64,000 bases of DNA from Terriglobia bacterium (GCA_963555775.3 CAUVWY020000005.1:332855-396854), one strand, 5' to 3'. Shown: positions 39,641 to 57,017, counted from the stretch's first letter. Notes: a model not told the origin generated them from the sequence alone. A program made the numbers and translations.

Positions 39641-39847
39641 TGTAAAGCAGCACAGCCCATGAGACGGCGAAAAAAGAGAGTAATCATCAAGTATGGCCGA
39701 GAATTCCCTTTTCGGCGCAGGTCGGAAGCCGAGTATCCCTGAAGGGGCACTTCGACGTGCCGGTGATCCTCGAGGATGTACGACCCCTCGGTACGGATGG
39801 GTCCGCGGGCTACGACTGCCAAGTCCGCCTGCCCGGCGGCGCACACG

Positions 39848-42800
39848 ATGACGAGCTTATCTCCTCACGAGGAAGCCGCTTCGAAATTTTCTCACCTTAA
39901 CTGCATCTCGCTGGACCTCGAGGTCGGCAAGGCGGACAGCCGGATTCACGCCTTTGCCGGAGTGCGCCCGGATACCGGCCGGCGCTTTGTGTTTACCGGT
40001 GGCAACGTGGCGGCGGCGTTGGCGAAACTGGACGACCTCGCCAATGGGGCGTCCTTTGTTCTGGGCCACAACCTGATCGCCTTCGATCTACCGCATCTGA
40101 GGGCGGCGAAGCCCGATTTGCGGCTGCTGACACTCCCGACTATCGATACGTTGCGTCTCAGTCCCCTCGCCTTTCCCCGCAATCCCTATCACCACCTCGT
40201 CAAGCACTACAAGGACGGCGGGCTCAAACGCGGACAACTGAACGACCCGGAACTCGACGCCCGTCTCGCTCTGACGGTCTTCGGCGATCAGCGGCAAGCG
40301 CTGCGGGAAGCCGCGCCGGACCTGCTGGCGGCGTGGCATTGGCTGAGCACGCCGGAGCCGGAGGGCAAGGAGCGCGCCCTCGACGATCTCTTCTCCGAGC
40401 TTCGTGCCTCGCGCCGCCCCTCGGACACCGAAGCCCTCGCCGCGATCGGCAAGCGGCTTGAAGGCACCGCCTGCGCCGCCCAAGGCCGTCAGATCGCGGC
40501 GGAAGCCCGGGCCTACGGGTGGTCGCTGTCCTATGCGCTTGCATGGCTGTCGGTGGCGGGCGGCAATTCGGTCATGCCGCCGTGGGTGGGTCACCAGTTC
40601 CCGGAGGCGGGCCGCCTGGTGCGTCGGCTCAGAGACACCGCCTGCGCCGATTCCGCCTGCGGCTGGTGCCGGGAACGCCACGATGCGCCGAAGGAGCTCA
40701 GGCGCTGGTTCGGCTTCAGCGATTTTCGCCCGGAACCAGCAGGCGTCGACGGGCGCCCCATGCAACGGTCCATCGTCGAGGCTGCAATGGCGGGAGAACA
40801 CGTTCTCGGAATTTTGCCCACCGGTACGGGCAAATCACTCTGCTATCAGATTCCGGCCCTGTCGCGTTACGACAAGACGGGCGCGCTGACGGTGGTGATC
40901 TCACCCCTGGTAGCGCTGATGGCGGATCAGGTGGCGGGATTGGAAGCACGCGGTGTCGGCTCGTGTGTGACGATCAACGGGCTGTTGTCGATGCCCGAGC
41001 GGGCCGACGCGCTGGACCGTGTCCGGCTGGGCGACGCCGGCATTCTCATCATCTCTCCGGAACAACTTCGCTCCCGTTCCCTGCGCCGGGCGCTCGACCA
41101 GCGCGAGATCGGCGGCTGGGTGCTGGACGAGGCGCACTGCCTGTCGAGATGGGGCCACGCTTTCCGACCCGATTACCGCTACGTAGGCCGCTTCATCGGG
41201 GAGAGGGCGGGCTCGGGGCCGATGCCGCCGGTGTTGTGCCTGACCGCAACCGCGAAGCCGGACGTGACCGAGGACATCGCCTGTCATTTCCGGGACAGGC
41301 TCGGTATCGGGCTGACGGTTTTTGACGGCGGCGCCGAGCGTCCCAACCTGACGTTCGAGGTGGTCCCGACATCGGGAGGCGAGAAGTTCGCGCACATCCA
41401 CCAGATTTTTGCGTCGTACCTGCCACCAGAGATGCCGGGCGGCGCCATCGTCTATTGCGCGACGCGCCGTCAGAGCGAGGAGGTGGCGGAGTTCTTGCAG
41501 TTGAAAGGCGTAGCGGCGGAGCATTTTCACGCAGGCCTCCCGCCGGAGACGAAGAAGGATGTGCAGCACCGCTTCGTCGGCGGCGAGTTGCGCGCGATCG
41601 TGGCGACCAACGCCTTCGGCATGGGCATCGACAAGCCGGACGTGCGGCTGGTGGTCCACGCTGACATTCCGGGATCGCTGGAGAACTATCTTCAAGAGGC
41701 CGGGCGCGCCGGACGGGACCGCGCATCGGCTCGCTGCGTATTGCTTTACACGGCGGACGACGTGGAGCATCAGTTCGGCATGTCGGCCTACTCGCGCCTC
41801 ACGAGGGCCGAGATCCACGGCATCCTCAGAGCGCTGCGCAACCTCGACCGCAAGAAGCGCCTGGGCGGCGAGGTGGTGGCCACAGCAGGCGAGATACTCG
41901 GCGAGGACGAGGACAAGGCTTTTGAGCGCGACTCCGTCACGGACGATACCCGCGTGCGTACCGCCGTCGCCTGGTTGGAGGAGGCGGAGTTGCTGACCCG
42001 GGAAGAGAACGTGGTCCAGGTGTTCCCTTCATCTCTCCGGGTAAACTCGGTCGAAGAAGCCCGCGCGAAACTGGAGAGGAGATCCGTCGCGGCGACCTAT
42101 CGCGAACGGCTCCTGAGGATCACCGAGTCGCTGATGGAGGCCAGTGCCGACGAAGGCGTCACCACCGACGAGTTGATGGGCGTATCGGGACTGAGCTCCG
42201 AGGGCGTTCGCCGCGCGCTGTACGATTTGGAACGGCTGGGCATCGCCAGCAACGACACAGTTCTGACCGCGTTCGTCCACGCCGGCGTGGAGCGCGCCTC
42301 ACTCAAGCGTTTCGAACAGGCGGCGGAGTTGGAGACCGCCCTGATCGCTCACATGCGCGAAGCTGCGCCTGACCTGGGCAAGGGAGACACGTCATCGCTT
42401 CATCTGCGCGTCGCCTCGCAGGTCCTGCGGGACGAAGGTCTTGCCGATCCCCTGCCCGAGCGGTTGTGGCGCATTTTACGGAGCATCGCCTACGACGGCC
42501 GCGGAGAGGATGGCGCCGCGGGGAGCCTGACTGTGCGAAAGCAGGACGCGGAAACGGCGCGGGTGACGCTCCAGCGCGAGTGGCGCGCGTTGGAGGACAC
42601 CGCCCGGATCCGGCGTGAGGCGGCGTGGCGCTTGCTGAATCATCTGCTCGCCTGCCTCCCGGCCGGAAGCCGGGGCACGGATCTGCTGGCCGAGACCACG
42701 CTCGGCAAGCTGAACGAGGCGATTGAGTCCGATTTGATTCTAAAGGCAAAGGTCAGGAACTTTAGCAAGTTGCTGGACCGCGCCCTGCTATGGCTGCACG

Positions 42801-44998
42801 AGCAGGAAGTCATCCGCCTCAACAAGGGCCTCGCGGTGTTCCGACCGGCGATGACCATCCGCCTGGAGCGGCGGGACCGCCGTGGCTTCGCGAGTACCGA
42901 CTTCGAGCCGCTCGCCCTTCATTACAAGGGACAGGTTCTGCAGATCCACGTGATGGTGGAGTTCGCCGAGCGCGGCCTCGCCGCCATGACCGACGCGCTG
43001 CGCCTGGCGATGGATTACTTCACTCTCAAGGCGGACGAGTTCCGCCGCCGCTGGCTGCCGGGCCGCGACAGTGAGATCGGCCGGCAGACCACTCCCGAGT
43101 CATGGCGGGCTATCGTCGAAAGCTTAAAGAACCCCGTCCAGCAGCGCATCGTCGCGGATGACCGGGAACAGACGAACGTGCTGGTGCTGGCGGGCCCGGG
43201 CTCCGGCAAGACGCGGGTGCTGGTGCATCGCATTGCCTATCTGGTCCGCGCAAGACGGGAGAACGCCCGCGGCATCTTGGCACTGGCCTACAACCGGCAC
43301 GCGGCAGTCGATATCCGCCGCCGCCTGAGGGACCTGATCGGCCGCGATGCGCGGGGAGTGACCGTCCTCACCTGCCACGCGCTGGCGATGCGTCTGGCCG
43401 GCGCCAGCTTCACCGGTCGGGCGGAGCGCCCGGACGACGATGTCTTTCGCCAAGTGCTTCAGAAGGCGGTAGCGCTTCTTCGCGGCGAGGGTCTTCCGCC
43501 CGAGGAGGCAGACGAACGGCGGGAGCGGCTGCTGGCGGGGTTTCGCTGGATTCTGGTGGACGAATACCAGGACGTTGGCCCGGACCAATACGCCTTGATA
43601 TCGGCCCTTGCGGGGCGAACGCTCGATGACGATGCCGGCAAGCTGACCTTGTTTGCGGTCGGCGACGACGATCAGAACATATACGCCTTCAACGGCGCAT
43701 CGGTAGAGTTCATACGTCGTTTCGAGGCGGATTACGGACCCCGACCTATTTACCTTACCGACAACTACCGCTCCCCCGGCCATATCCTCGCCGCGGCCAA
43801 CGCGATGATCGAGCCAGCGCGGGAGCGGATGAAGGCCGGACATCCCATTCACATTAACCGTGCGCGTGCGAAGAACCCGCCGGGCGGAACGTGGCAGAAA
43901 CTGGATCCGGTCGCGCGTGGGCGGGTGCAGATCCTGCCCTCGGGTCGCGATTCGGTCTCGCAGGCGCGAATCACCATGGCCGAGTTGCTGCGCCTTGCCG
44001 CCCTGTCGTCAGATTGGGACTGGTCACGATGCGCCGTGATCGCGCGCGAGTGGGAGTATCTGGTTCCGGTGCGGGCGTTCTGCGAGATGCACGATATCCC
44101 GGCGCAGATGGGGAACGAGGAGATCCCCGGTTTCTGGCACCTGCGCGAGACCCGTGCATTCGTGGAATGGCTGCGCAGCCGGGAGACTGGCGTCGTCGAC
44201 GGCCGAACCCTGCGCCGCTGGGCGGATGCATGCGCGTCCGACCCCTGGAACGAGTTGTTGCGGCAAGCCATCGACGAGCATGCCCTGGAGACCGATGGGG
44301 CCGAAACCCCTGTGGGCCACTTCATTGAATGGCTCGCCGAATGGGGCCAGGAAATCCGCCGGCGTCAGCGCGGGCTGCTGCTGCTGACTGCGCACCGCGC
44401 CAAGGGTCTAGAGTTCGACCATGTGGCCGTGCTGGACGGCGGTTGGAACCGCGTCGGACACGGCGAGGACCCGGACGAGACTCGGAGACTCTATTACGTA
44501 GCCATGACGCGCGCCAGGGAGACCCTGGCGCTCGCGCGGTTCAATGGGCATCATCGGTTGCAGGGGGCGTTGCTCGACAATCCCTTTGTCTTTCATCGCG
44601 AACCGAGTGAGCTTGGGCCCGCCCCCGCGGCACTGGAATACCACGTTGTCCAGCCCAGCCTTGGAGACGTCGATATCGGTTTCGCGGGACGACAGGACGC
44701 CCGTCAACCGGTGCATCGCGCCATCGCCGCGCTGTCGTCAGGCGACCCACTGCAAACGCGCGTCGTGAACGCCGGGCGCTGGGAACTGCTGAATAGCGAA
44801 GGCACGCTGGTGGGGCGCTTGGCCAAGAGCTTCGCCCCCCCGGGCGGAACACGGTGCCGGTCGGCCACGGTACTGGCCATCGTGGGACGGAGCCGCGAGG
44901 CATCGAAGCCGGAATATCGCGACGGCGTGAAATGCGATACCTGGGAAGTGATCGTCCCGGAGCTAACGTTCGAGCCGGATCGAGGGATAGCCTCCTGA
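39848..44998 (+). CDS. DEDD-exonuclease-like + RecQ (SF2) + UvrD (SF1) fusion helicase
   Basis: LDLE/GHN..FD/NDPELD; PTGTGKS, DEAH, ATNAFGMGIDK, QEAGRAGRD; AGPGSGKT, VDEYQD, GDDDQNIY, HRAKGLEFD, YVAMTRAR. Confidence 0.9.
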   Translation: MTSLSPHEEAASKFSHLNCISLDLEVGKADSRIHAFAGVRPDTGRRFVFTGGNVAAALAKLDDLANGASFVLGHNLIAFDLPHLRAAKPDLRLLTLPTIDTLRLSPLAFPRNPYHHLVKHYKDGGLKRGQLNDPELDARLALTVFGDQRQALREAAPDLLAAWHWLSTPEPEGKERALDDLFSELRASRRPSDTEALAAIGKRLEGTACAAQGRQIAAEARAYGWSLSYALAWLSVAGGNSVMPPWVGHQFPEAGRLVRRLRDTACADSACGWCRERHDAPKELRRWFGFSDFRPEPAGVDGRPMQRSIVEAAMAGEHVLGILPTGTGKSLCYQIPALSRYDKTGALTVVISPLVALMADQVAGLEARGVGSCVTINGLLSMPERADALDRVRLGDAGILIISPEQLRSRSLRRALDQREIGGWVLDEAHCLSRWGHAFRPDYRYVGRFIGERAGSGPMPPVLCLTATAKPDVTEDIACHFRDRLGIGLTVFDGGAERPNLTFEVVPTSGGEKFAHIHQIFASYLPPEMPGGAIVYCATRRQSEEVAEFLQLKGVAAEHFHAGLPPETKKDVQHRFVGGELRAIVATNAFGMGIDKPDVRLVVHADIPGSLENYLQEAGRAGRDRASARCVLLYTADDVEHQFGMSAYSRLTRAEIHGILRALRNLDRKKRLGGEVVATAGEILGEDEDKAFERDSVTDDTRVRTAVAWLEEAELLTREENVVQVFPSSLRVNSVEEARAKLERRSVAATYRERLLRITESLMEASADEGVTTDELMGVSGLSSEGVRRALYDLERLGIASNDTVLTAFVHAGVERASLKRFEQAAELETALIAHMREAAPDLGKGDTSSLHLRVASQVLRDEGLADPLPERLWRILRSIAYDGRGEDGAAGSLTVRKQDAETARVTLQREWRALEDTARIRREAAWRLLNHLLACLPAGSRGTDLLAETTLGKLNEAIESDLILKAKVRNFSKLLDRALLWLHEQEVIRLNKGLAVFRPAMTIRLERRDRRGFASTDFEPLALHYKGQVLQIHVMVEFAERGLAAMTDALRLAMDYFTLKADEFRRRWLPGRDSEIGRQTTPESWRAIVESLKNPVQQRIVADDREQTNVLVLAGPGSGKTRVLVHRIAYLVRARRENARGILALAYNRHAAVDIRRRLRDLIGRDARGVTVLTCHALAMRLAGASFTGRAERPDDDVFRQVLQKAVALLRGEGLPPEEADERRERLLAGFRWILVDEYQDVGPDQYALISALAGRTLDDDAGKLTLFAVGDDDQNIYAFNGASVEFIRRFEADYGPRPIYLTDNYRSPGHILAAANAMIEPARERMKAGHPIHINRARAKNPPGGTWQKLDPVARGRVQILPSGRDSVSQARITMAELLRLAALSSDWDWSRCAVIAREWEYLVPVRAFCEMHDIPAQMGNEEIPGFWHLRETRAFVEWLRSRETGVVDGRTLRRWADACASDPWNELLRQAIDEHALETDGAETPVGHFIEWLAEWGQEIRRRQRGLLLLTAHRAKGLEFDHVAVLDGGWNRVGHGEDPDETRRLYYVAMTRARETLALARFNGHHRLQGALLDNPFVFHREPSELGPAPAALEYHVVQPSLGDVDIGFAGRQDARQPVHRAIAALSSGDPLQTRVVNAGRWELLNSEGTLVGRLAKSFAPPGGTRCRSATVLAIVGRSREASKPEYRDGVKCDTWEVIVPELTFEPDRGIAS

Positions 44999-45267
44999 AC
45001 TGTCATTGACTCCGATCAGCGCGAGAGCGAGGGCGCGCCTATTTGCCGCGACAGCGTCAGATGATGCAGGCTTCGGTCGAATACCTCGGCGGACTGAAAG
45101 CGAGGGCCGAGATTATACCGATAAACCAGAGAGCCCCTTGTGCGGACGGAACCGCGTCCGGTCCGATGCGCCCGTTCAAGGTCCATCCCGGAAACCATCT
45201 CAGGGCTACTGGCCCATGAACAAACGGCTTGCAGAATGGTACCTGGTTTGGTACTAAATTGATTGTC

Positions 45268-45522
45268 ATGCGCGCCAAACACCAGCGCACTTTGGAGAGC
45301 ATGTTCAAGAGGCCCACGCCGGCTGGCATTCGGTGGGCGGATCTCGTCGCCATGCTGGAAGCGGCAGGCGTGGAGGTCACCCAGCGTTCGGGGTCGCGCG
45401 TGCTTCTGAAAAAGGGAATGGAACGGATGGTGGTTCACCGGCCCCATCCGGAGACAGAGACTGGCAGAGCGACGGTGCGCGACATCGTCGCGTTTCTCGA
45501 AGCCGTAGGAGTCACCCCATGA
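45268..45522 (+). CDS. hicA: HicA-family toxin
   Basis: KHQRTL..MF..P....IRWAD...L...G......GSRV, HRPHP. Confidence 0.9.
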   Translation: MRAKHQRTLESMFKRPTPAGIRWADLVAMLEAAGVEVTQRSGSRVLLKKGMERMVVHRPHPETETGRATVRDIVAFLEAVGVTP

Positions 45523-45851
45523 TGGAATACAAGGGATACGCTGCCGAAGTAGAATTCGACGATTCCGTGGGCCTGCTTCACGGGCGGGTCGTCAACAGCG
45601 GCGCCTATCCGATCGCCACCTTTGAAGCGACGGACGTCGAAGGAATTCGGCGTGAGTTACATCGATCCATCGACGAATACCTCGCTTCCTGCAAGGAAGA
45701 TGGCATTGAGCCCAGGAAGCCTTTCTCAGGCAAACTTAACGTTCGGCTCGGGCCAGACTTGCATCAACGCGTTGCGCTCTCGGCATCGGAGAGCGGCCTG
45801 AGCCTGAACAGATGGATCGTGCAAGCGCTGGAGAAAAGCGTATCTCGATGA
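45519..45851 (+). CDS. hicB: HicB-family antitoxin
   Basis: MEYKGY, SIDEYL..C...G.EP.KPFSGKLNVR, SLNRW. Confidence 0.92.
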   Translation: MMEYKGYAAEVEFDDSVGLLHGRVVNSGAYPIATFEATDVEGIRRELHRSIDEYLASCKEDGIEPRKPFSGKLNVRLGPDLHQRVALSASESGLSLNRWIVQALEKSVSR

Positions 45852-47879: not shown

Positions 47880-47895
47880 TGGCAGCCTGCGTGCT
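47880..47895 (+). promoter_or_regulatory. sigma54 promoter of the nitrate operon
   Basis: TGGCAGCCTGCGTGCT (GG-N10-GC), AT-rich tract upstream, candidate UAS at 47785-47798. Confidence 0.65.
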
Positions 47896-47957: not shown

Positions 47958-49034
47958 GTGAAATACTTCGACCGTAAAGCGTTTTGGATTGGGGTGGCTG
48001 CCGCTCTCGCGGTCATCGCCGTGATCTATCTGGGCTCTCGGGGCCTGCGGAATTTCGATTGGGCTCTGACGACATACGCCGTCGCCAGTATTTTTGCGGC
48101 TTTCGCGGTCGTATACCGGTATGCCGTATGGGCCCAGCGCCCGCCCACCTGGATGTATCTGAAACGCGGCCTCGAAGCGTTCATTCGCCGCAGACGTTCG
48201 GGCTTCCAGCAACCGGCCAGCCGCCGGATGGTGTCTCTCACCCGAAACACGGGCCGACTCGGCCGGTTGCTCCTCGACAACTTCCTTCTGCAGAAGTTCA
48301 TCACTCAACGCGGCCGCGAACGGTGGGTAATGCATGCGTGCCTGTCCTGGGGAGGGATGCTGGCTTTCGCCGTCACGTTCCCTCTTGTATTTGGATGGAT
48401 CCACTTCGAGACCCTGCCCGATAACGCCGAAATTTATCGGGTTTTCATGTTCGGGTTTCCGGTCGAACAGTTTTCGGTAAACAGCCTGAGAGCGTTCCTC
48501 CATTTCAACGTCCTCAATTTTTCGGCCATCGTAATGCTGGTGGGTCTGGCGCTGTCGGTGAAGCTCCGCATGAGCGACCGGGGCGAGTTGGCCATCCAGA
48601 CATTCGCGGACGACATATTCCCGTTGTTCATACTGTTCACCGTATGCGTGACGGGATTGATGCTGACCGTCAGCGCCAAGTTCATGGCCGGTTACGGTTT
48701 TGCGTTCATCGGTCTGGCCCATGCCGCCAGCGTGATCGGCCTGTTGTTGTACCTGCCGTTCGGAAAGCTGTTTCATGTCGTACAACGGCCTTTGTCTCTC
48801 GGCGTTTCCTTTTACAAGCAGGCAGGCGAGACCGGCGAGCGCGCGTCCTGCCACCGGTGCGGCGAAGACTACGCGTCGCGTCTGCACATCGACGACCTCA
48901 AGACCGTGCTGGACCAACTCGGTTTCGACTACAGATTCTCGACGCCTTCGGGCGAGGTGCACTACCAGGATGTGTGTCCCGCTTGCCGCCGGCGTCTTCT
49001 TGCACTGAATCAGGGGGCCGCGCTCGGGCGCTGA
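47958..49034 (+). CDS. NarI/DsrM-like polytopic membrane protein with C-terminal CxxC..CxxC
   Basis: Multiple TM helices; RWVMH, LAH...LPFGKLFH histidines; CHRC and CPAC. Confidence 0.75.
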   Translation: MKYFDRKAFWIGVAAALAVIAVIYLGSRGLRNFDWALTTYAVASIFAAFAVVYRYAVWAQRPPTWMYLKRGLEAFIRRRRSGFQQPASRRMVSLTRNTGRLGRLLLDNFLLQKFITQRGRERWVMHACLSWGGMLAFAVTFPLVFGWIHFETLPDNAEIYRVFMFGFPVEQFSVNSLRAFLHFNVLNFSAIVMLVGLALSVKLRMSDRGELAIQTFADDIFPLFILFTVCVTGLMLTVSAKFMAGYGFAFIGLAHAASVIGLLLYLPFGKLFHVVQRPLSLGVSFYKQAGETGERASCHRCGEDYASRLHIDDLKTVLDQLGFDYRFSTPSGEVHYQDVCPACRRRLLALNQGAALGR

Positions 49035-49043
49035 AGCAATCCC

Positions 49044-51224
49044 ATGGCAATCCCAACGTTAAACGAACAACAATTCATCGCCGAATTCGGTCCGAGCCTC
49101 CACTACGAACCGGCCGAGGGCTGGTCGTCGCAAGAGCCCGACAAGTTGGTCAAGACGCACTGCTGCTTCTGCGGTATCCAGTGCGGCATTCAACTCAAGG
49201 TCAAAGACGACAAGGTGGTCGGATTCGAGCCGTGGGAGGAGTTTCCCGTCAACCGTGGAATGCTTTGCCCGAAAGGCGTCAAGCGTTACATGCAGAACGA
49301 TCATCCGGACCGGCTGCTGTCCCCGTTGATCCGGGACAACTCGGGCTTCAGGGAAGCGGCTTGGGATGAGGCCATGGAACGCCTGGTTGGGGACATGCGG
49401 CGGATTCAGGCCCAGCATGGACCCGACTCGTTCGCCATCCTGGGCGGGGCCTCGATGACGAACGAAAAGGCGTACCTGCTGGGCAAGCTGGCCCGCGTCG
49501 CCGTCAAGACGGCCAACATCGATTACAACGGCCGGCTCTGCATGGTCAGCGCCGGAGCGGCGAACAAGATCGCTTTCGGAGTCGACCGGTCGGCGAACCC
49601 CTGGAGCGACATTCCACTGGCCAAGGCGCTCATCATCAGTGGCGCCAACATCGGCGAGTGTTTTCCGATTCTGACCGACTACGTCTGGCGCGCCCGCGAC
49701 AACGGCGGAAAGATCATCGTGATCGACCCTCGCATGACCCCGATTGCTCGGACAGCCGACCTCTTCTTGCCCGTCCGGCCGGGACGCGACAGCGCGCTGG
49801 CCAACGGAATCCTCCACGTGATGATCCAGCGCGGATGGATCGATCCGGAATTCATCGAAGCCCACACCGAAGGCTTCGACCAGGTACAGGAAGTCGTCCG
49901 CAACTTCACTCCCGGCGTAACCGAGAAGATCACGGGGGTGCCCGCATCGAGCATCCTCAAGGCGGCCGAAATCTGGGGGACTGCCGAGACTTCGATGCTC
50001 TTGCACGCACGGGGTGTCGAACACCATACCAAGGGCGTCGAAAACTGCCTCTCCTATATCAATCTGGTGCTGGCATCCGGCCGCATCGGCAAGCCGGGCT
50101 GCGGTTACGGGACCTTGACGGGACAGGGCAACGGGCAGGGCGGCCGCGAGCACGGGCAGCGCTGCAACCAGTTGCCCGGCGGCCGCGACATCGAAAATCC
50201 CGAACATCGCCAGTTTATCGCCGATTTCTGGAAGGTGCCCGAGCCCGAAATCCCGCACACCGGGTTGACGGCCTGCGAAATAATCGACTCCATCGAATCG
50301 GGCGAGATCAAGGGCCTCCTGGCGATCAGCTTCAATCCGCTGGTCTCCATTCCGGACGCGAACCGAACGCGCGTGGCCTTGGAGAAACTGGAACACTTCA
50401 CGTGCATTGACTTCTTCCTCTCCGAAACGGCCCGCTATGCGGATGTCGTGCTTGCCGGATCGCTCCAGGAGGAGGACGAGGGCACGGTCACCACGGGAGA
50501 AGGGCGCTGTGTCCGGTTGCGACAGTCCGTGCCACCGCCGGGCAATACCCGCGTGGACTGGGAGATTCTGGTCGACCTGGCGCGCCGGTTGGGATACGGC
50601 GAACATTTTCCATATGCCATCACCAAGGACATCTTTCGTGAACTGTGCGCCGCTTCCGAGGGCGGGAACGTGGACTACAGTGGAATGGACTACGCCCGAA
50701 TCGAAAAGAATATGGGCATTTTCTGGCCCTGCCCAGCCCGGAACCATCCGGGCACGCCGCGTCTGTTCGAAGGCGGCCGGTTTCACCATCCCGACGGCAA
50801 GGCACGGTTCCGGGGATTCGAATACCGGCCTCCAGCCGAAGACGTGGATGTGAAATATCCCCTTTTTCTGACCACTGGACGCGTGGTCTCGCAGTACCTG
50901 AGCGGCAATCAGACGCGCCGGATCGGCGGTCTGGTCGATCAGTATCCCGAGCCGCTGTGCGAGATGCATCCGCGGCTTGCGACCCGCCTTGGAATCGCGG
51001 ATCGCGACCCCGTGCGTGTCGTGACGCGAAGAGGAGAAATCGTTGTCCCGGCCAGCGTCGTGAAGACGATACGGCCCGACACGGTCTTCTTGCCCTACCA
51101 CTGGCCAGGCAACAAGTCTGCCAACCTTTTGACCAATCGCGCCCTGGATCCGATTTCGAAGATACCCGAATTCAAAGTCTGCGCGTGCCGGGTCGAGAAA
51201 GCATTGGGAGCCGAACATGATTGA
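49044..51224 (+). CDS. Mo-bisPGD nitrate reductase catalytic subunit (Nas/Nap-type, no export signal)
   Basis: [15 protein letters not shown] Fe-S motif, NGRLCM Mo-Cys ligand, [21 protein letters not shown]; next to nirBD and nitrate transporter. Confidence 0.88.
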
Positions 51225-51852
51225 ATCCGAATTCTTCATCGATCCTTCCCGGTGCATCGGCTGCGAGGCGTGCGTGGCCGCCTGCATGGAATGCGACACG
51301 CATCGAGGCCAATCGTTGATCCACCTGGAGTTTGTGGACCGGGCCGTCAGCACGCAGACCGGACCCGTGGTTTGCATGCACTGCGAAAACCCGACGTGCG
51401 CCCAGGTATGCCCGGCCGACGCGATCAAGCAGTCCGAGGAAGGCGTGGTCCACAGCTCGATGAAATCGCGGTGCATCGGCTGTTCCAACTGCGTGTTGGC
51501 GTGCCCGTTCGGTGTGCCCCGCTACGTCGCGGCCATCGACCAGATGGTCAAGTGCGACATGTGCTACGACCGGACCAGCATCGGCAAGAAACCGATGTGC
51601 GCCACGGTTTGCCCCAGTCAGGCGCTCTACTACGGTACCCGCGAAGAACTTGTGCGCCTTCGCCGCGAGACGCCGGTGAACAAATTTCAATTCGGGCGCC
51701 AGACGGTGCGGACCAAGGTGAATTTGATGACTTCAAGTGAAAGCGAACGGTTCGACTTCGACGTCGTCGGGTTCATGGCCGATGCCAAACCCGATGTCGA
51801 TCTCGAGGACCTTGCCGTTTGGACGGAGGAATATGCCGAAACAGGAGTATGA
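51217..51852 (+). CDS. Four-cluster ferredoxin subunit (DmsB/NrfC-like)
   Basis: [48 protein letters not shown]. Confidence 0.92.
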
Positions 51853-52378
51853 CGCCTTGGGCCATGGGTCCCATCCGTCAGGCCCGGTCCGCTGGCGGCA
51901 GGATTTTCCGATTTCTTCCGATGACGACAGCTACGCCACACGGCTGGAATTTACCAAGTTCCTGGGGTTGACCTCCATCGCTTTCCTCTTCGGAACCTTT
52001 GTCGCTGCCGGGCGGAAGACATGGCGGCGGTGGGCGGCCCGACAGTCAGCAAGCACGTCCGTCGCCGGGATTTCCGAGTTGGAAGTCGGCGGCTACAAGC
52101 TCTTTCGTTATCCGAGCGTGGACGATCCCTGCATTCTGCTGCGCCGGGGTCCGTCCGAGTTCGTCGCGTTCAATCAGAACTGCAGCCATCTGGCCTGTCC
52201 GGTCCACTTCGAAGCTGCCGCCGGACAGCTTTTGTGCCCCTGTCACGTCGGCGTCTTCAGCGCCGATGACGGGCGTCCCCTTGCCGGGCCGCCCAGGCGG
52301 GGACTTGAAAAATTCACGGTGTCGGTGCGGGACGGCCAGGTGTGGGTCGAGCCCCCTTCGGCGGAGGAATTCGCATGA
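51833..52378 (+). CDS. Membrane-anchored Rieske [2Fe-2S] protein
   Basis: CSHLAC and CPCH boxes, GPP.R.L, N-terminal TM after TRLEFTKFL. Confidence 0.9.
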
Positions 52379-52608
52379 GTCCACATACCCGCCTGCGTCA
52401 TCGGATGCACGTCGTGCTGCACATGGCCATGACCTTTGTCATCACCATTCTACTGGCGCAGCTCTGGCTGTTTACCGTTGCGCTCGAAGCCATGGAGAGC
52501 CGGGACGCGCCGGAGACGATCGTCGTGGCCGCGCTGGTTGTCTCGTTCCTCGGCTGCTCGGCGGTGTGGCTGTTGATCCGATTCTTTTTACGCGCGGAGA
52601 AGTCATAG
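52375..52608 (+). CDS. Small two-TM protein (DUF6755-like)
   Basis: LLAQLWLFTVALEA motif; ATGA-coupled to the Rieske gene. Confidence 0.7.
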   Translation: MSPHTRLRHRMHVVLHMAMTFVITILLAQLWLFTVALEAMESRDAPETIVVAALVVSFLGCSAVWLLIRFFLRAEKS

Positions 52609-52636: not shown

Positions 52637-55144
52637 GTGAACAGCAAGAAGCAGAAACTGGTGGTGGTCGGCAACGGTATGGCCGGAGCTCGTGTCGTCG
52701 AGGAGATTCTGCGACGGGCGCCGGAGCGTTTCGACATCGTAATGTTCGGGGCCGAACCGTACGGCAATTACAACCGCATCCTGTTGAGCAACGTGCTCAA
52801 CGGCAGCCAGAACGCAACGGACATCTTCATGAACTCGTTGGCGTGGTATCGGGACAACGGCATCCGGCTGCACGCCGGTGTCAAGGCAATCCTGATCGAC
52901 CGCGAGCGCGGTGTCGTCGTGGGCGTGCCGCTCCAGAAAGACGCCATGGCCTACAGTGTCGACGCGGCCGCAGAGTGGGGCGTGCCCGAGATCGAAGAGC
53001 CTTACGACAACGTCATCATCGCTACCGGCTCGCGGCCCTTTGTCCCGCCGATGGAGGGTTTCGGCGGACCCGGAACTTTCGTGTTCCGCACCATCGACGA
53101 TTGCGCGCGCATCGCCGACTATGCCCGCGCCAGCCGGCGTGCCGCTGTCATCGGCGGTGGCTTGCTGGGGCTTGAAGCCGCGCGCGGGCTCATGACGCAT
53201 GGAGTCGAAGTCACGGTACTGGAAGCAGCGCCGCAGTTGATGGGCGCTCAACTCGACTCCGAAGCGGGCGACATACTTCGCAAGACAATCGAATCGATGG
53301 GTATCAAGGTGCTGTGCAACACCATCACCACCCGCATCGTCCGTCCGAATGGCCGCATCACCGATCTCGAATTCAGGGATGGCGCCACCCTGGACACCGA
53401 CATGGTCGTTGTCAGCGCGGGCATTCGTCCCATTACGGAAACCGCTGAAGCCTCGGGGTTGAAGGTGAACCGGGCTATCGTCTGCGACGACCAGATGCGA
53501 ACCAGCGACCCCGCCATCTTCGCTCTCGGAGAATGCGTCGAGCACTGCGGTCAGCTCTACGGCCTTGTGGATCCGATCTGGGAGCAGGCCGAGGTGCTGG
53601 CGGACGTGATCACCAGCACCCGGCCCGATGCCGCGTATCGCGGTTCCAAGCTGGGCACGAAATTGAAGGTCATGGGCGTGGAACTGGCCTCCATGGGAGA
53701 GACCCGGCCGGCGGGTCCGGATGACGAAGTGGTTGTCTATCGCGAACCCGTCGGAGGCATCTACAAAAAGCTGATCGTTCGGAACAACCGGATTGCCGGG
53801 GCCATTCTCCTTGGGGACATCGAGGCCGCCGATACCCTGCTGCAGATGTTCCGGGCGGGGGTCAAGGTGCCCGCACGCCGGGCCGATCTGCTGTTCGGCA
53901 CCCCCACGGGCGTCGGTTTGCTGCAGGTATCGGATTTGCCCGACAACGCGCAGATCTGCAATTGCAACGGCGTCAGCAAGCGCCAGGTCGTGGAAGCGAT
54001 CGAGACCGGCGGCTGCCAGAGCGTCTCCAGGGTGGGCGCGGCGACCAAGGCCGGGACGGGATGCGGTTCGTGCAAGACCCTGGTGGCCCAGTTGCTCGAA
54101 TCGTGTCTGGGCGAGGTGGGCTTCGATCCAGGAGAACATTACTACGTTCCCGGCATCGCCCTTGAGAAATCCCAACTCGTCGCTGAGATCAAGAACCGCG
54201 GTCTCAAATCCGTGAGTGACGTGTTCCGCGAACTGGCCGGCGGAAATGAAGACGCCGCCAGCAAGGTCGGTCTGGCTTCCCTGTTGAAGACCCTGTGGCC
54301 CGGTGAGTACGAAGACGAGCGCGACGCACGCTTCATCAACGACCGCGTCCACGCCAATATCCAGAAGGACGGAACGTTTTCCGTTGTCCCGCGCATCTAC
54401 GGCGGTGTCACGACACCGGACGAACTTATGCGCATCGCCCAGGTTGCCGTCAAGTACCAGGTGCGGATGGTGAAGTTGACCGGGGGACAGCGCATCGACC
54501 TGCTGGGCATCAAGAAAGAAAACCTGCCGGGCGTCTGGAAAGAACTCGGCATGCCCAGCGGCCACGCCTACACCAAGGCGTTCCGAACCTGCAAGAGTTG
54601 TGTCGGCACCGACTTCTGCCGGTATGGCGTGGGCGATTCGATCGCGATGTCCCAGAAGATCGAACGCCGCTTTCAGGGTGTCGAGTCGCCTCACAAGATG
54701 AAGCTGGCCACCGCGGGATGTCCCCGCAACTGTTCCGAGGCCTACGTCAAGGATCTCGGGGCGGTTGCCATCGAAGGCGGACAGTGGGAAATCTACGTTG
54801 GAGGCGCCGCGGGCGGCAGCGTGCGCAAGGGCGACCTGCTGACGACGGTCAACACCGACGACGAGGTGCTGCTGTACATGGGCCGGTTCATGCAGTACTA
54901 CCGCGAACACGGCAAGTACCTGGAACGCTCCTACGGCTTCGTTGAACGGCTCGGTATCGAAAATCTGCGAAAGATTCTGGTCGAGGACAGCCTCGGCATC
55001 TGCGAACAATTGGATCGAGAGATCCAGAAGGCAGTCGACGCCTACCATGATCCGTGGAAAGAAGCGGATCTACCCGATCATCCCGCGCAGTTCAGCGGGC
55101 CGGAATTGGCGTACGTGCTGGATGTGGCTGAAAACAATGGCTGA
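52637..55144 (+). CDS. nirB: NAD(P)H nitrite reductase large subunit
   Basis: VVGNGMAG, GGGLLGLEAA, CNCNGV..GCGSC, NDRVHANIQKDGT, siroheme ligands CKSCVG..FC / GCPRNC. Confidence 0.95.
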   Translation: MNSKKQKLVVVGNGMAGARVVEEILRRAPERFDIVMFGAEPYGNYNRILLSNVLNGSQNATDIFMNSLAWYRDNGIRLHAGVKAILIDRERGVVVGVPLQKDAMAYSVDAAAEWGVPEIEEPYDNVIIATGSRPFVPPMEGFGGPGTFVFRTIDDCARIADYARASRRAAVIGGGLLGLEAARGLMTHGVEVTVLEAAPQLMGAQLDSEAGDILRKTIESMGIKVLCNTITTRIVRPNGRITDLEFRDGATLDTDMVVVSAGIRPITETAEASGLKVNRAIVCDDQMRTSDPAIFALGECVEHCGQLYGLVDPIWEQAEVLADVITSTRPDAAYRGSKLGTKLKVMGVELASMGETRPAGPDDEVVVYREPVGGIYKKLIVRNNRIAGAILLGDIEAADTLLQMFRAGVKVPARRADLLFGTPTGVGLLQVSDLPDNAQICNCNGVSKRQVVEAIETGGCQSVSRVGAATKAGTGCGSCKTLVAQLLESCLGEVGFDPGEHYYVPGIALEKSQLVAEIKNRGLKSVSDVFRELAGGNEDAASKVGLASLLKTLWPGEYEDERDARFINDRVHANIQKDGTFSVVPRIYGGVTTPDELMRIAQVAVKYQVRMVKLTGGQRIDLLGIKKENLPGVWKELGMPSGHAYTKAFRTCKSCVGTDFCRYGVGDSIAMSQKIERRFQGVESPHKMKLATAGCPRNCSEAYVKDLGAVAIEGGQWEIYVGGAAGGSVRKGDLLTTVNTDDEVLLYMGRFMQYYREHGKYLERSYGFVERLGIENLRKILVEDSLGICEQLDREIQKAVDAYHDPWKEADLPDHPAQFSGPELAYVLDVAENNG

Positions 55145-55475
55145 AACATTAGACAAGGTCCGCCCGATCGATGTGGGCGAAATCACCGCAATCCCGATGG
55201 GGCAGGGCCGCTGCTACATTGTCGGCACCGAGGAAATTGCCCTATTCCGGCAGCGTGACGGCCGGTTGTTCGCCGCCCAGAATCGCTGCCCGCACCGCTC
55301 GGGTCCACTGGCCGAAGGCTTGCTCGGGGGCAATCACGTTATCTGTCCGTTGCACGCCCACAAGTTCAATCTGGACACCGGCAAGGGAACCGAGCCCAAC
55401 GAATGCCTGCGCGTCTACACCGTACGGGAAGTCGAGGGCAAGATCCTGTTGAGCCCGGAAGACGTGGACAGTTGA
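55137..55475 (+). CDS. nirD: Nitrite reductase small (Rieske-type) subunit
   Basis: NRCPHRSGPLAEG and CPLH; directly after nirB. Confidence 0.88.
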   Translation: MAETLDKVRPIDVGEITAIPMGQGRCYIVGTEEIALFRQRDGRLFAAQNRCPHRSGPLAEGLLGGNHVICPLHAHKFNLDTGKGTEPNECLRVYTVREVEGKILLSPEDVDS

Positions 55476-55676: not shown

Positions 55677-57017
55677 ATGGAATTCAAGAACAAAGCCACG
55701 AAGATCAAACTATTCAGCCTGAACAGCATTCCGATGCGAACGTTTCATATGACCTGGTTCGCGTTCTTCCTTTGTTTCTTCGGTTGGTTCGGTATCGCCC
55801 CGCTCATGGCGGTGGTGCGCGAGGATCTGAACCTGACTGCCCAACAGGTCGGCAACACCGTAATCGCGTCCGTACTGATCACGGTCTTTGGCCGCATCCT
55901 GGTCGGATGGTTGTGCGACAAGATTGGGCCACGGAAAGCGTACACCTACCTTCTGGTGCTGGGCGCCCTGCCCGTCATGGGCATCGGCTTGTCAACGAAC
56001 TACGAAACTTTTCTATTGTTCCGGCTCGCGATCGGCGGAATCGGCGCTTCATTTGTCATCACGCAGTACCACACCTCGGTCATGTTTGCGCCGAATGTCG
56101 TCGGCACGGCGAATGCCACGACAGCAGGGTGGGGAAACCTGGGGAGCGGTGTGACCCAGGCGACCATGCCTCTGATCCTTTCAATGATCCTGATGTTTGT
56201 AGCGTCCGAGTCGCTCGGCTGGCGCATCGCCATGGTGATTCCCGGGATTGCGCTCCTGGTGACAGCGTATATTTACTGGCGGTTCACGGTCGACTCACCC
56301 GACGGCAACTACGCGGACCTGCGCAAGCGCAAAGCAATGGCGTCCGGAGAGTCGGTCAACGGCACGATTTGGGAGGCTGCCGGGGACGTCCGCGTCTGGG
56401 CGCTATTCGTCATCTACGGTGCGTGCTTCGGGATAGAACTGACGATGAACAACATCGCGGCCCTCTACTACTTCGACTATTTCGGCCTCAACCTGCAGAG
56501 CGCCGGTTTGGTTGCGGCGCTATTCGGTGGCATGAACATCTTTACCCGTACCCTCGGAGGAGTTACCGGGGACCGGTGTGGCAGACGCTGGGGTTTGAAA
56601 GGCCGCGTTCGATTCATGGGAATTATCCTTTTCCTGGAAGGCATCGCACTGATGCTCTTCTCGCAGATGACCACCCTTCCCCTGGCAATCGGAACCATGA
56701 TGTTGACGGGCCTGTGCGTACAGATGTCGAACGGGGCCACGTTTTCGGTCGTTCCGTTCATCAACAAGCGGGCGCTGGGGTCGGTGGCGGGAATCGTCGG
56801 CGCGGGTGGAAATGCCGGGGCGGTTGCGGCGGGTTTTCTGTTCCGAAGCCCCGATTTGCCATGGCCGACAGCGCTGTTCATCCTGGGCGTTGTGGTGGTC
56901 TCGGTGTCGAGTCTTGCTTTGCTGGTACGTTTTTCAGAGGCCGAAGAGACCGCCGTCAAGATGGAGATTACAACCCGGATGCAGGCCGCTTCCGCTTCCG
57001 TCGGAGTCGAAACATAA
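55677..57017 (+). CDS. NarK/NRT2-family nitrate/nitrite MFS transporter
   Basis: MRTFHMTW..FF.CFFGWF, GTANATTAGWGNLG, YGACFGIEL, GIVGAGGN. Confidence 0.93.
   Translation: MEFKNKATKIKLFSLNSIPMRTFHMTWFAFFLCFFGWFGIAPLMAVVREDLNLTAQQVGNTVIASVLITVFGRILVGWLCDKIGPRKAYTYLLVLGALPVMGIGLSTNYETFLLFRLAIGGIGASFVITQYHTSVMFAPNVVGTANATTAGWGNLGSGVTQATMPLILSMILMFVASESLGWRIAMVIPGIALLVTAYIYWRFTVDSPDGNYADLRKRKAMASGESVNGTIWEAAGDVRVWALFVIYGACFGIELTMNNIAALYYFDYFGLNLQSAGLVAALFGGMNIFTRTLGGVTGDRCGRRWGLKGRVRFMGIILFLEGIALMLFSQMTTLPLAIGTMMLTGLCVQMSNGATFSVVPFINKRALGSVAGIVGAGGNAGAVAAGFLFRSPDLPWPTALFILGVVVVSVSSLALLVRFSEAEETAVKMEITTRMQAASASVGVET

Follow-up and report, generated by a model that had tools for sequence, protein, structure and literature searches.

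The locus considered here, in a 64,000-nucleotide stretch of DNA from a Terriglobia bacterium (the window), raises the question of whether five closely spaced genes encode a single redox complex and, if so, which reaction it catalyzes. The initial annotation described these genes as tightly coupled, placed behind one sigma54 promoter and directly upstream of nirBD. All five reading frames are real and occupy the + strand positions in Table 1, two of them with revised start codons. Homologues place the start of g4 at about 51833 rather than at 51737 as called earlier, and the true start of g5 is at about 52375, in an ATGA overlap with the g4 stop codon. The g1/g2, g2/g3, g3/g4, and g4/g5 spacings are 9, -8, about -20, and -4 nt; after a gap of 28 nt, the next genes 3′ of g5 are nirB, nirD, and narK, as identified by profile matches. 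For the promoter, the sigma54-like site TGGCAGCCTGCGTGCT has the GG/GC core, a sensible position, and two mismatches relative to the consensus. However, the window contains 14 sites that match equally well, no real excess over the 11.9 expected by chance, and we regard the site as a plausible candidate promoter.

Table 1. Features of the locus, numbered from the first nucleotide of the window
Feature	Position	Strand	Length, profile match, or remark
g1, NarI-fold membrane protein	47958..49034	+	358 aa
g2, NasC-like Mo-bisPGD catalytic subunit	49044..51224	+	726 aa
g3, four-cluster [4Fe-4S] ferredoxin subunit	51217..51852	+	211 aa
g4, membrane-anchored Rieske [2Fe-2S] protein	51833..52378	+	PF00355
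g5, two-helix membrane protein, DUF6755	52375..52608	+	PF20540
nirB, NAD(P)H nitrite reductase large subunit	52637..55144	+	TIGR02374, 815.9 bits (above cut-off 578)
nirD, nitrite reductase small subunit, start inferred	55131..55475	+	TIGR02378, 74.9 bits (cut-off 74.65)
narK-family nitrate/nitrite MFS transporter	55677..57017	+	TIGR00886, 284 bits (cut-off 311.7); MFS_1
sigma54-like -24/-12 site, TGGCAG-N5-GTGCT	47880..47895	+	63 nt upstream of g1

A synteny search for the gene set found it to be conserved. In 79 of 80 related loci g2 follows g1, and g2, g3, and g4 are all present beside g1 in 61 of the 63 loci that have at least 3.9 kb of DNA downstream. A reading frame similar to g5 and carrying a QxWL motif is located 3′ of g4 in 52 of 61 loci. 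The loci come from at least six phyla (Acidobacteriota, Verrucomicrobiota, Planctomycetota, Chloroflexota, Armatimonadota, and others), and 38 of the 301 genomes sampled from the host phylum contain g1. These counts support the conclusion that the five genes are one conserved module, not a chance neighborhood. In 31 of the 80 loci the gene immediately upstream encodes an MFS protein. The assimilatory setting suggested earlier holds for the host, where nirBD are adjacent, but nirB is near the module in just 6 of the 80 loci, some of the others adjoining RIC and Crp-type genes instead; assimilation may therefore not be the general role of the family.

The catalytic subunit had been described as Nas-like, lacking both an export signal and a BFD tail, and this description is borne out. 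g2 carries the Pfam domains Molybdop_Fe4S4 (PF04879), Molybdopterin (PF00384), and Molydop_binding (PF01568), with a [4Fe-4S] domain at its N-terminus, a Cys in the ligand position, and an RLCM motif. Pfam gives no Fer2_BFD domain, the protein ending 12 residues past the last domain, and no twin-arginine motif is visible by eye in its N-terminus. The best NCBIfam match is NasC (802.2 bits, full length), ahead of Fdh-alpha (604), NapA (271-285), and NarG (51.3), with the NasC score falling below the equivalog cut-off of 1100 (NF047855). The closest solved structures are formate dehydrogenases, no Nas enzyme being among the matching structures, and Cys166-Met167 aligns with Sec-His of F420 formate dehydrogenase. 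The host genome, which is 98.4% complete, has three PF00384 matches, one of which is g2. Nitrate is the putative substrate because NasC is the best match, because of the Cys-Met pair and the NarK-type fusions (see below), and because nirBD and narK are adjacent.

g1 was first read as a membrane protein with NarI/DsrM-like His positions. It scores 19.2 bits against the Pfam NarI profile PF02665, below the gathering score of 22.9, and weakly matches QmoC (36.6 bits) in a profile search; Pfam reports no PF00033 cytochrome b match. The AF2 model (pLDDT 93.7) has six helices and a cytoplasmic C-terminal four-Cys domain, and its best structural matches are EtfD (9ojn_A, Z 11.6) and NarI (1q16_C, Z 10.4, rmsd 4.9 over 184 aligned residues), the next match having Z 7.8. 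In the hhalign alignment with E. coli NarI (94.6%), which covers the heme-binding last helix, H255 pairs with H187 and H273 with H205, and the NarI heme motif PFxKLxH lines up with g1, while the pairing of H126 with NarI H56 is by helix position only. Among 38 sequences, H255 is present in all, H126 and H273 in 37 each, and the tail Cys in 35-38, whereas H149 is His in just 21 and position 184 in 19. Hence, g1 has the NarI fold and three of the four NarI ligands for two b hemes are conserved among these 38 sequences, but the equivalent of the fourth is absent, so that a two-heme wire is not assured. Structure search and hhalign both found the NarI fold, and the possibility that g1 is an MFS carrier was rejected. 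Taken together, g1 is probably a cytochrome b. At least 1372 relatives of g1 are fused behind an NNP/NarK-type MFS transporter, which fixes its N-terminus inside; with six helices, the four-Cys tail is placed inside too.

g3, initially called a DmsB-like ferredoxin, is a four-cluster protein of the DmsB/FdnH/HybA type. It matches Fer4_11 in Pfam (74.8 bits) and DmsB (103 bits) and HybA (105.8 bits) in NCBIfam, each of the latter two under its own cut-off; all of its 16 Cys are invariant in 36 sequences, and neither a signal peptide nor a membrane helix was seen in it. In g4, a conserved peptide at the N-terminus is followed by a signal anchor of the Tat type (RL in the host copy) and by a minimal Rieske domain (32.8 bits against PF00355) with the cluster ligand and disulfide pattern CSHLAC...CPCH. 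C117, H119, C122, C135, C137, H138, and W21 are invariant and R38 is found in 36 of 37 sequences (alignment A3). The extra disulfide Cys pair, noted at the outset, is present in 61 of 61 Rieske homologues. The fold resembles that of the Chlorobaculum Rieske protein (TMt 0.80) and of AioB (TMt 0.70-0.72, 20-27% identity). It was also stated that the cluster has no cytochrome b gene, and the sole PF00033 gene of the genome is indeed elsewhere (contig C9, C9:282542-283138), beside another Rieske match. g5 matches DUF6755 (PF20540) with 30.7 bits at a cut-off of 27, and its residues Q29, W31, L32, and S57 are invariant.

The Tat motif of the Rieske family had been missed by the earlier reading and is degenerate in the host copy. 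RRxFxK occurs in 59 of the 61 homologues; the host strain has RL where its relatives have RR, as seen in contigs of two runs. Leu in place of the second Tat Arg may impair assembly in this strain.

How would these subunits fit together? In the predicted complex, the Rieske protein is positioned across the membrane against g1 and g5, with a score of 0.83 relative to 0.41 for the best control. Of 157 solved complexes, 116 attain this mark, and of 215 mismatched pairs, 2 do so. No solved complex of this type turned up, and the score is therefore unlikely to come from the model's memory. Three runs share at least 91% of contacts, with partner pLDDT of at least 75. The g4 helix is antiparallel to helix 2 of g1, and the g4 cluster loops 118-126 and 136-140 form an interface with the g1 outer loops 149-160 and 239-249; the lowest-error contacts are those of g5 with the g4 helix. 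Residues 59-79 of g3, at the membrane-proximal cluster end, touch a part of g4 that is not specified. The modeling shows a predicted g1-g4-g5 membrane subcomplex. Given the Tat motif in the family and the helix orientation in the model, the Rieske domain most likely faces outward and the complex spans the membrane.

Collectively, we favor, with a probability of roughly 0.6, the reading that the products of all five genes assemble into a single membrane complex, which oxidizes quinol and reduces nitrate to nitrite at a cytoplasmic active site. That they form one complex is argued by the occurrence of g2, g3, and g4 with g1 in nearly all loci with sufficient downstream DNA. We infer nitrate as the substrate, the quinol donor, the cytoplasmic placement of g2 and g3, and the number of hemes; quinol oxidation, energy conservation, and the electron bifurcation suggested earlier would likewise be conjectural properties of the complex. 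In this scenario, g2 and g3 would be situated on the cytoplasmic face and dock on g1 at the cytoplasmic heme (H126/H273) and the four-Cys tail. g4 would cross the membrane once, leaving its N-terminal peptide in the cytoplasm and placing its [2Fe-2S] domain on the other side, against the outer loops of g1, and the g5 hairpin would clamp the Rieske helix. Quinol would be oxidized on the outside of the membrane, where g1 and the Rieske cluster would together form the site, with protons released there, and electrons would pass through g1 across the membrane to g3, to the [4Fe-4S] cluster of g2, and to Mo. Such a scheme would amount to a redox loop of the NarGHI kind, with a Nas-type protein as its catalytic subunit. 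NarK would supply nitrate, and nitrite would go to the NirBD encoded downstream for assimilation, with NADH-recycling ammonification as a possible additional use.

A different topology would result if the Tat anchor of g4 exported folded g2-g3, with nitrate reduced outside. Electrons would then pass from quinol via the Rieske protein to g3 and g2, as proposed for haloarchaeal pNar, and a NarK-type importer would bring nitrite to NirBD; g4 would act much as AioB carrying AioA. The Tat motif of the g4 family agrees with this arrangement, as do the lack of own signals in g2 and g3, the modeled g3-g4 contact, which would suit a Rieske-to-FS4 contact, and the resemblance of g4 to AioB in fold and in profile score (NCBIfam arsenite_ox_S, 41.4 bits). 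AioA is also close to NasC/NasA in the phylogeny, as presented in PMC7331816. However, no NarJ/TorD-family chaperone (PF02613) is found in the 98.4% complete host genome, and fusion with a nitrate importer is easier to explain by a cytoplasmic active site. The N-terminal peptide of g4 is conserved (W21, DFP), which is not usual for a peptide serving only as a signal and hints at a partner on the inside. Known NarI-fold proteins pass electrons to partners on the cytoplasmic face, and g1 has retained the His pair on this side, along with an additional conserved four-Cys domain in the cytoplasm. We therefore consider export of the catalytic subunits unlikely.

The neighborhood of nirBD raises another option, namely ordinary NADH-dependent assimilation in which NirB would feed g2 via NirD, itself a Rieske-type protein encoded with nirB on the same strand shortly downstream. 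g1, g3, g4, and g5 would then be accessory or form a separate redox module, possibly for redox balancing or sensing. NirB-NirD could feed electrons to g2, as in NasB-NasG-NasC of Paracoccus. That precedent is described in PMC3475470; by that account, the Paracoccus-type enzyme has a BFD-type extension at its C-terminus, which is absent from g2. Moreover, g3 and g4 accompany g2 far more regularly than nirB does (61 of 63 against 6 of 80 loci), and g1 through g5 are more tightly coupled in translation than nirB is to them, making this route improbable. That g2 acts on formate, chlorate, selenate, or another oxyanion, the link to nitrate being contextual, is very improbable: its NasC score below the cut-off, its Fdh-alpha score, and its closest solved structures would allow it, but g2 has Cys-Met where formate dehydrogenases have Sec/Cys-His, NasC tops the full-length scores, and the NarK-type fusions and neighbors together with nirBD indicate nitrate.

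Returning to the quinol-oxidizing complex with a cytoplasmic active site, its relationship to known systems can be considered. It would resemble NarGHI in that its Mo subunit faces the cytoplasm, its Fe-S subunit has four clusters, its membrane subunit has the NarI fold, and a NarK-type transporter accompanies it. It differs in that g2 is Nas-type (Cys ligand, 726 aa; NarG TIGR01580, cut-off 1084 against the 51.3 bits given above) and g3 is a DmsB-like protein of 211 aa (NarH TIGR01660, 41.6 bits, cut-off 524). In addition, g1 carries one more helix at its N-terminus, an outer loop with a beta-sheet, and the four-Cys tail, and lacks the fourth heme His. The module further includes a Tat-type Rieske protein and DUF6755, and the genome has no NarJ-family match. 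The Nas enzymes known so far are soluble, their donors being NAD(P)H, ferredoxin, or flavodoxin. NasC/NarB/NasA are the best-scoring family for g2 and share its N-terminal [4Fe-4S] domain, Cys ligand, lack of an export signal, and, in the host, the nirBD-narK context; yet g2 is below the equivalog cut-off and the module brings the membrane partners g1, g3, and g4. According to PMC7331816, no member of the Nas/Aio/Nap clade is tied to four-cluster or membrane-anchor subunits, whereas both are conserved partners here.

With bc1/b6f and with NarB/NarC of haloarchaeal pNar, the module shares a disulfide-bearing Rieske protein, with a Tat motif in the g4 family but RL in the host copy, that is predicted to sit outside on a probable b-type membrane protein. 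In pNar, the corresponding pair (NarB the Rieske protein, NarC the cytochrome b) is proposed to feed a nitrate reductase. Here, however, the protein partnering the Rieske subunit in the membrane is folded like NarI and not like cytochrome b, the catalytic Mo protein belongs to the Nas rather than the NarG type, and a c-type cytochrome subunit is missing: of 80 loci, one has a clear cytochrome c reading frame next to the module. The residues after CPCH in g4 are Gly and Phe, where bc1 has Ser and Tyr, which raise the cluster potential. AioAB also joins a MopB enzyme from the Nas/Aio/Nap clade to a small Rieske protein of the Tat type, but g2 is not AioA (TIGR02693, 138.3 bits against 359) and g4 scores below AioB (TIGR02694, 41.4 against 95.65). 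Aio is fully periplasmic and is not known to have a four-cluster subunit or a membrane cytochrome. As for Nap, g2 reaches 271.4 bits with NapA (TIGR01706) against 930.55 and has no visible Tat signal of its own.

Full-text literature searches returned no paper describing the five-gene complex, which is most likely an undescribed membrane-bound nitrate reductase combining a Nas-type Mo enzyme with a Rieske protein. The nearest account is that of Heylen and Keltjens (2012; PMC3475470), in which a short NasC (729 aa) of Bacillus bataviensis is linked to genes for an Fe-S protein, called a hybrid-cluster protein, and a Rieske-type protein. The passages on this cluster name no membrane cytochrome or small membrane protein and report no biochemistry, and the authors read it as an alternative assimilatory system. 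Judged by this description, the B. bataviensis cluster is probably the same module.

Five open reading frames lie head to tail in the window (see the table) and appear to encode a widespread complex iron-sulfur molybdoenzyme, a predicted nitrate reductase, with an undescribed subunit set. The genes code for a NarI-fold membrane protein (g1), a NasC-like Mo-bisPGD subunit (g2), a four-cluster ferredoxin (g3), a membrane-anchored Rieske protein (g4), and a small membrane protein that a domain search assigns to DUF6755 (g5). Reading of the frames confirmed this arrangement, which the initial annotation had interpreted as a quinol-linked, possibly electron-bifurcating or energy-conserving, nitrate reductase that feeds assimilation. 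nirB begins 28 nt past g5 (TIGR02374, 816 bits), and nirD and a gene for a NarK-family transporter are next in line. All the motifs named in that annotation were found as well: g2 contains RLCM and [10 protein letters not shown] and lacks a BFD-type extension, g4 has CSHLAC and CPCH, and g1 has a C-terminal CxxC...CxxC. As for the proposed sigma54 promoter, the GG/GC core is found at 47880-47895, but matches of equal quality are not above chance in the window (14 versus 11.9 expected), so that the site is no more than a plausible candidate. Scans of the window gave one sigma70 promoter-like site (2.9 expected) and five terminator-like sites (9.4 expected).

Open reading frames of the module, in window coordinates
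Gene	Position	Strand	Length
g1	47958-49034	+	358 aa
g2	49044-51224	+	726 aa
g3	51217-51852	+	211 aa
g4	open from 51737; start ~51833 by aligned homologues	+	181 aa
g5	open from 52342; likely start 52375, ATGA overlap with g4 stop	+	77 aa

The interpretation is partly supported. The gene set is conserved. At least 4502 g1 relatives are of similar length (1040 clusters at 50% identity), and a locus search with an alignment of 12 g1-type sequences, taking one genome per species, gave at least 579 confirmed loci. The best 80 of these were examined; they belong to Acidobacteriota, Verrucomicrobiota, Planctomycetota, Chloroflexota, Armatimonadota, and others, and include Herpetosiphon and Pelagicoccus isolates. 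g2 follows g1 in 79 of the best 80, the remaining locus ending right past g1. Where at least 3.9 kb is available downstream, g2, g3, and g4 are all present (61 of 63 loci; the exceptions are L010 and L039), and 52 of the 61 also have a g5-like ORF with a QxWL motif after g4. Six of the nine lacking it are verrucomicrobial. At the verrucomicrobial loci L003, L004, L007, L008, L012, and L014, where no such ORF follows the Rieske gene, the Rieske anchor region is divergent (…RRxFAKVACCSALA…), and verrucomicrobial modules may use another small subunit or none. Closer to the window, g1 is carried by 38 of 301 sampled genomes of the same phylum, and nine of 40 closer relatives have a full-length g4 match at E < 1e-30.

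A domain search finds the three domains of Mo-bisPGD enzymes in g2. Its classification follows NCBIfam scores: the top model is NasC (802 bits over the full length, under the 1100 cut-off), with lower scores for formate dehydrogenase alpha (604), haloarchaeal NasA (402), NapA (271-285), and NarG (51). A His after Sec is a hallmark of formate dehydrogenases. Cys166-Met167 of g2 aligns with the Sec-His of F420-dependent formate dehydrogenase, and this hallmark His is thus missing. The genome has three PF00384 (MopB) matches in total, among them g2, for which NasC scores best. g3 is a DmsB/FdnH/HybA-type four-cluster ferredoxin with 16 invariant Cys.

The g1 sequence matches NarI and QmoC only below threshold and, searched against solved structures, gave no match up to E 10. 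Its structure model is confident (pLDDT 93.7), and in a VIA search the top matches were mycobacterial EtfD (Z 11.6) and E. coli NarI (Z 10.4, rmsd 4.9, 184 residues), with the next row at 7.8. Foldseek with the same model found nothing at E <= 0.001 and reached NarI and EtfD only at E ~0.03-0.1. Profile comparison with E. coli NarI (94.6%) equates H255 with NarI H187 and H273 with H205, within a common PFxKLxH motif. H126, at the cytoplasmic start of helix 3, is kept in 37 of 38 sequences and, from its position, could pair with H273. The fourth NarI haem ligand is without a conserved counterpart (H149 is His in 21/38, position 184 in 19/38), so that the NarI-like His positions claimed for g1 hold for three out of four. 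A His from g5 was considered as the missing ligand and rejected, as g5 has no conserved His. g1 is a probable cytochrome b and may bind one or two haems. The four tail Cys are conserved in 35-38 of 38 sequences. In the model, this tail (residues 293-350), a possible Fe or Zn site, superposes on a portion of 7z0t chain F, from E. coli formate hydrogenlyase (Z 6.3, rmsd 1.8, 52 residues, 21% identity).

The orientation of g1 can be deduced from its relatives. In at least 1372 longer ones, an NNP/NarK-type MFS transporter is fused ahead of g1, and an MFS gene lies immediately upstream of g1 in 31 of the best 80 loci; because of these fusions and neighbours, sources label g1 "MFS transporter". NarK-type transporters end in the cytoplasm, and this C-terminus together with the order of the fusion places the g1 N-terminus inside. 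With six modelled helices, the basic loop 60-125, H126, H273, and the four-Cys tail are then also inside, and the beta-sheet loop 148-173 and H255 are toward the outside. Apparent fusions of g1 to the Mo subunit (P0227, P0229) seem to reflect frameshifts or poor read quality where the two parts meet, and they were not used as evidence for the side of g2.

g4 is a small Rieske protein whose ligands and disulfide pair are invariant in an alignment of 37 sequences. The model of its domain (pLDDT 87.3) superposes on minimal Rieske domains, those of the Chlorobaculum bc-type Rieske protein (TMt 0.80) and of AioB (0.70-0.72). A disulfide pair of this kind is typical of outward-facing Rieske proteins, and RRxFxK precedes the anchor helix in 59 of 61 g4 homologues; the Tat motif and the disulfide pair point to a cluster on the outer side. 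The genome has one TatC. Conservation extends to the segment before the Tat motif (W21, DFP), unusually for a signal peptide, and this suggests an inner partner. In bc1 Rieske proteins, a Ser and a Tyr raise the cluster potential; at the same positions, after CPCH, g4 has Gly and Phe, and this replacement suggests a middling potential.

The window itself departs from the near-invariant Tat motif. In the alignment, R37 is invariant and R38 is found in 36 of 37 sequences, the sole exception being the window (T-R-L-E-F-T-K), where g4 codon 38 (51944-51946) is CTG (Leu) at the second Arg. RR is present in a sister genome from the genus, at 98% identity. T at 51945 occurs on contigs of two runs of one study (depths 2.8 and 2), which may be the source of the assembly, and G, giving Arg, on contigs of two runs from two other studies (depths 20 and 3.9). 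RL is thus polymorphic among strains rather than an isolated assembly error, and in the window's strain the Rieske domain may be exported less well. The RR/RL strain pair is a natural experiment that could show whether Tat targeting is important for the Rieske protein.

g1, g3, g5, and g4 were folded jointly, with g4 as the scored partner. The model scored 0.83 versus 0.41 for the best control. Among solved complexes, 116 of 157 reach that mark, as do 2 of 215 mismatched pairs; these counts are only rough for a four-chain job with user-made alignments. Three runs share at least 91% of contacts, with partner pLDDT at least 75. The most certain modelled contacts are those of the g4 helix with g5 and with g1 helix 2, to which it is antiparallel (g1 50 at g4 43, g1 42 at g4 51), putting the g4 C-terminal domain on the side of the g1 outer loops. 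The interface includes the cluster-binding loops of g4 (118-126, 136-140) and g1 outer loops 149-160, 174-183, and 239-249, as well as the g4 N-terminal peptide and g1 inner residues 3-8, 60-61, 215-217, and 264-269. g4 also contacts residues 59-79 of g3, a stretch that separates Cys groups II and III and that by analogy with NarH we take to be the membrane-proximal end; the output does not specify the contacting part of g4, and the side of the membrane for g3 is one that we infer.

The simplest model is a redox loop of the NarGHI design that differs in having a Nas-type catalytic subunit. Quinol would be oxidized outside, at a joint site of g1 and the Rieske cluster, electrons would cross via g1 to g3 and g2, and nitrate would be reduced inside, next to the transporter. 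Since nirBD and narK are adjacent in this genome, nitrate assimilation is the likely role of the module here; NADH-recycling ammonification as in E. coli is possible. The role of the family may be wider than assimilation, nirB being nearby in only 6 of the best 80 loci. The Pelagicoccus locus has nirBD with sulfite/nitrite-reductase-like and CysJ-like genes. A RIC/ScdA-hemerythrin gene adjoins the module at L020:3695-6515 and L017:5855-6562, and the L020 module also adjoins a Crp-type regulator and a NapH-like Fer4_5 protein. The RIC and Crp context suggests nitrosative stress or anaerobic regulation, not assimilation. In an Anaerolineae MAG, a gene for a SLAC1/TehA-type anion channel (L019:12937-13992) follows the module in place of the NarK-type transporter, with MobA and FmdE-like genes upstream.

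In a second reading, the Rieske cluster and the outer side of g1 would together make up a Qo-like, electron-bifurcating quinol site, on a fold with no relation to that of cytochrome b. One electron per quinol would fall to the Rieske cluster, and the second would be raised to low potential and pass via g1 and g3 to the Nas-type Mo centre. Mo centres of this type reportedly operate well below the potential of the quinone pool, according to work on cyanobacterial NarB, and aerobes with such a site could assimilate nitrate from quinol and not from NADH or ferredoxin. On this reading the module could also link NasC, in evolution, to the Rieske-bearing arsenite oxidase. A true bifurcating site, however, needs an outer acceptor, and a conserved cytochrome c or other outer acceptor beside the module, looked for in the 80 loci, was seen in one: the gene for a monohaem cytochrome c that immediately precedes g1 in a Thermoanaerobaculia MAG (L062:7484-7825), the only possible outer Rieske partner among them. 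This counts against bifurcation, which we consider unlikely. Another contig of the window's genome encodes a Rieske/cytochrome b pair of its own (C9:282542-283735).

g2 and g3 could instead be exported by hitch-hiking on the g4 signal, by analogy with AioA, which rides the signal of AioB, but the cytoplasmic four-Cys tail of g1, the polarity of NarI, the fusion to a transporter, and the absence of a NarJ/TorD-family chaperone from this genome argue for the inside, none of them amounting to proof.

No description of the five-subunit complex was found in the full-text literature searched, which excludes subscription journals, and the name "DUF6755" is in no paper of that literature; PMC5449189 and PMC8808070 were false leads, and passages of PMC10100899 contributed nothing further. 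According to passages of PMC7331816, four-cluster or membrane-anchor subunits occur with no member of the Nas/Aio/Nap clade, a generalization that the module contradicts, and AioA probably arose within NasC/NasA. Passages of PMC3475470 describe, for Bacillus bataviensis, a linkage of a short NasC to an Fe-S protein and a protein of Rieske type and interpret it as an alternative assimilatory system; this cluster probably represents a portion of the module described here.

In gene surveys, such genes count as ordinary soluble "assimilatory" nasA/nasC or go under the names "MFS transporter" and "hypothetical". Should the enzyme prove to be bound to the membrane and linked to quinol, the wiring, and possibly the energy coupling, of nitrate reduction would differ from what narG/napA/nasA surveys assume for Acidobacteriota, Verrucomicrobiota, Planctomycetota, Chloroflexota, and further phyla of soil and water. 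The pairing of a Rieske protein with a NarI-fold cytochrome would also offer a second, independent setting in which to study quinol oxidation by Rieske clusters.

Just upstream of the nitrate cluster (45229-45851, forward strand), two small overlapping ORFs resemble by eye a HicA-like toxin and a HicB-like (ribbon-helix-helix) antitoxin. A 1740-aa ORF at 39776-44998 (forward strand) combines, also by eye, exonuclease-like, RecQ-like helicase, and UvrD-like helicase parts; G+C is raised in this stretch (0.655-0.666 versus ~0.58-0.62 in the surroundings), which may represent an acquired island or hold a gene for defence.
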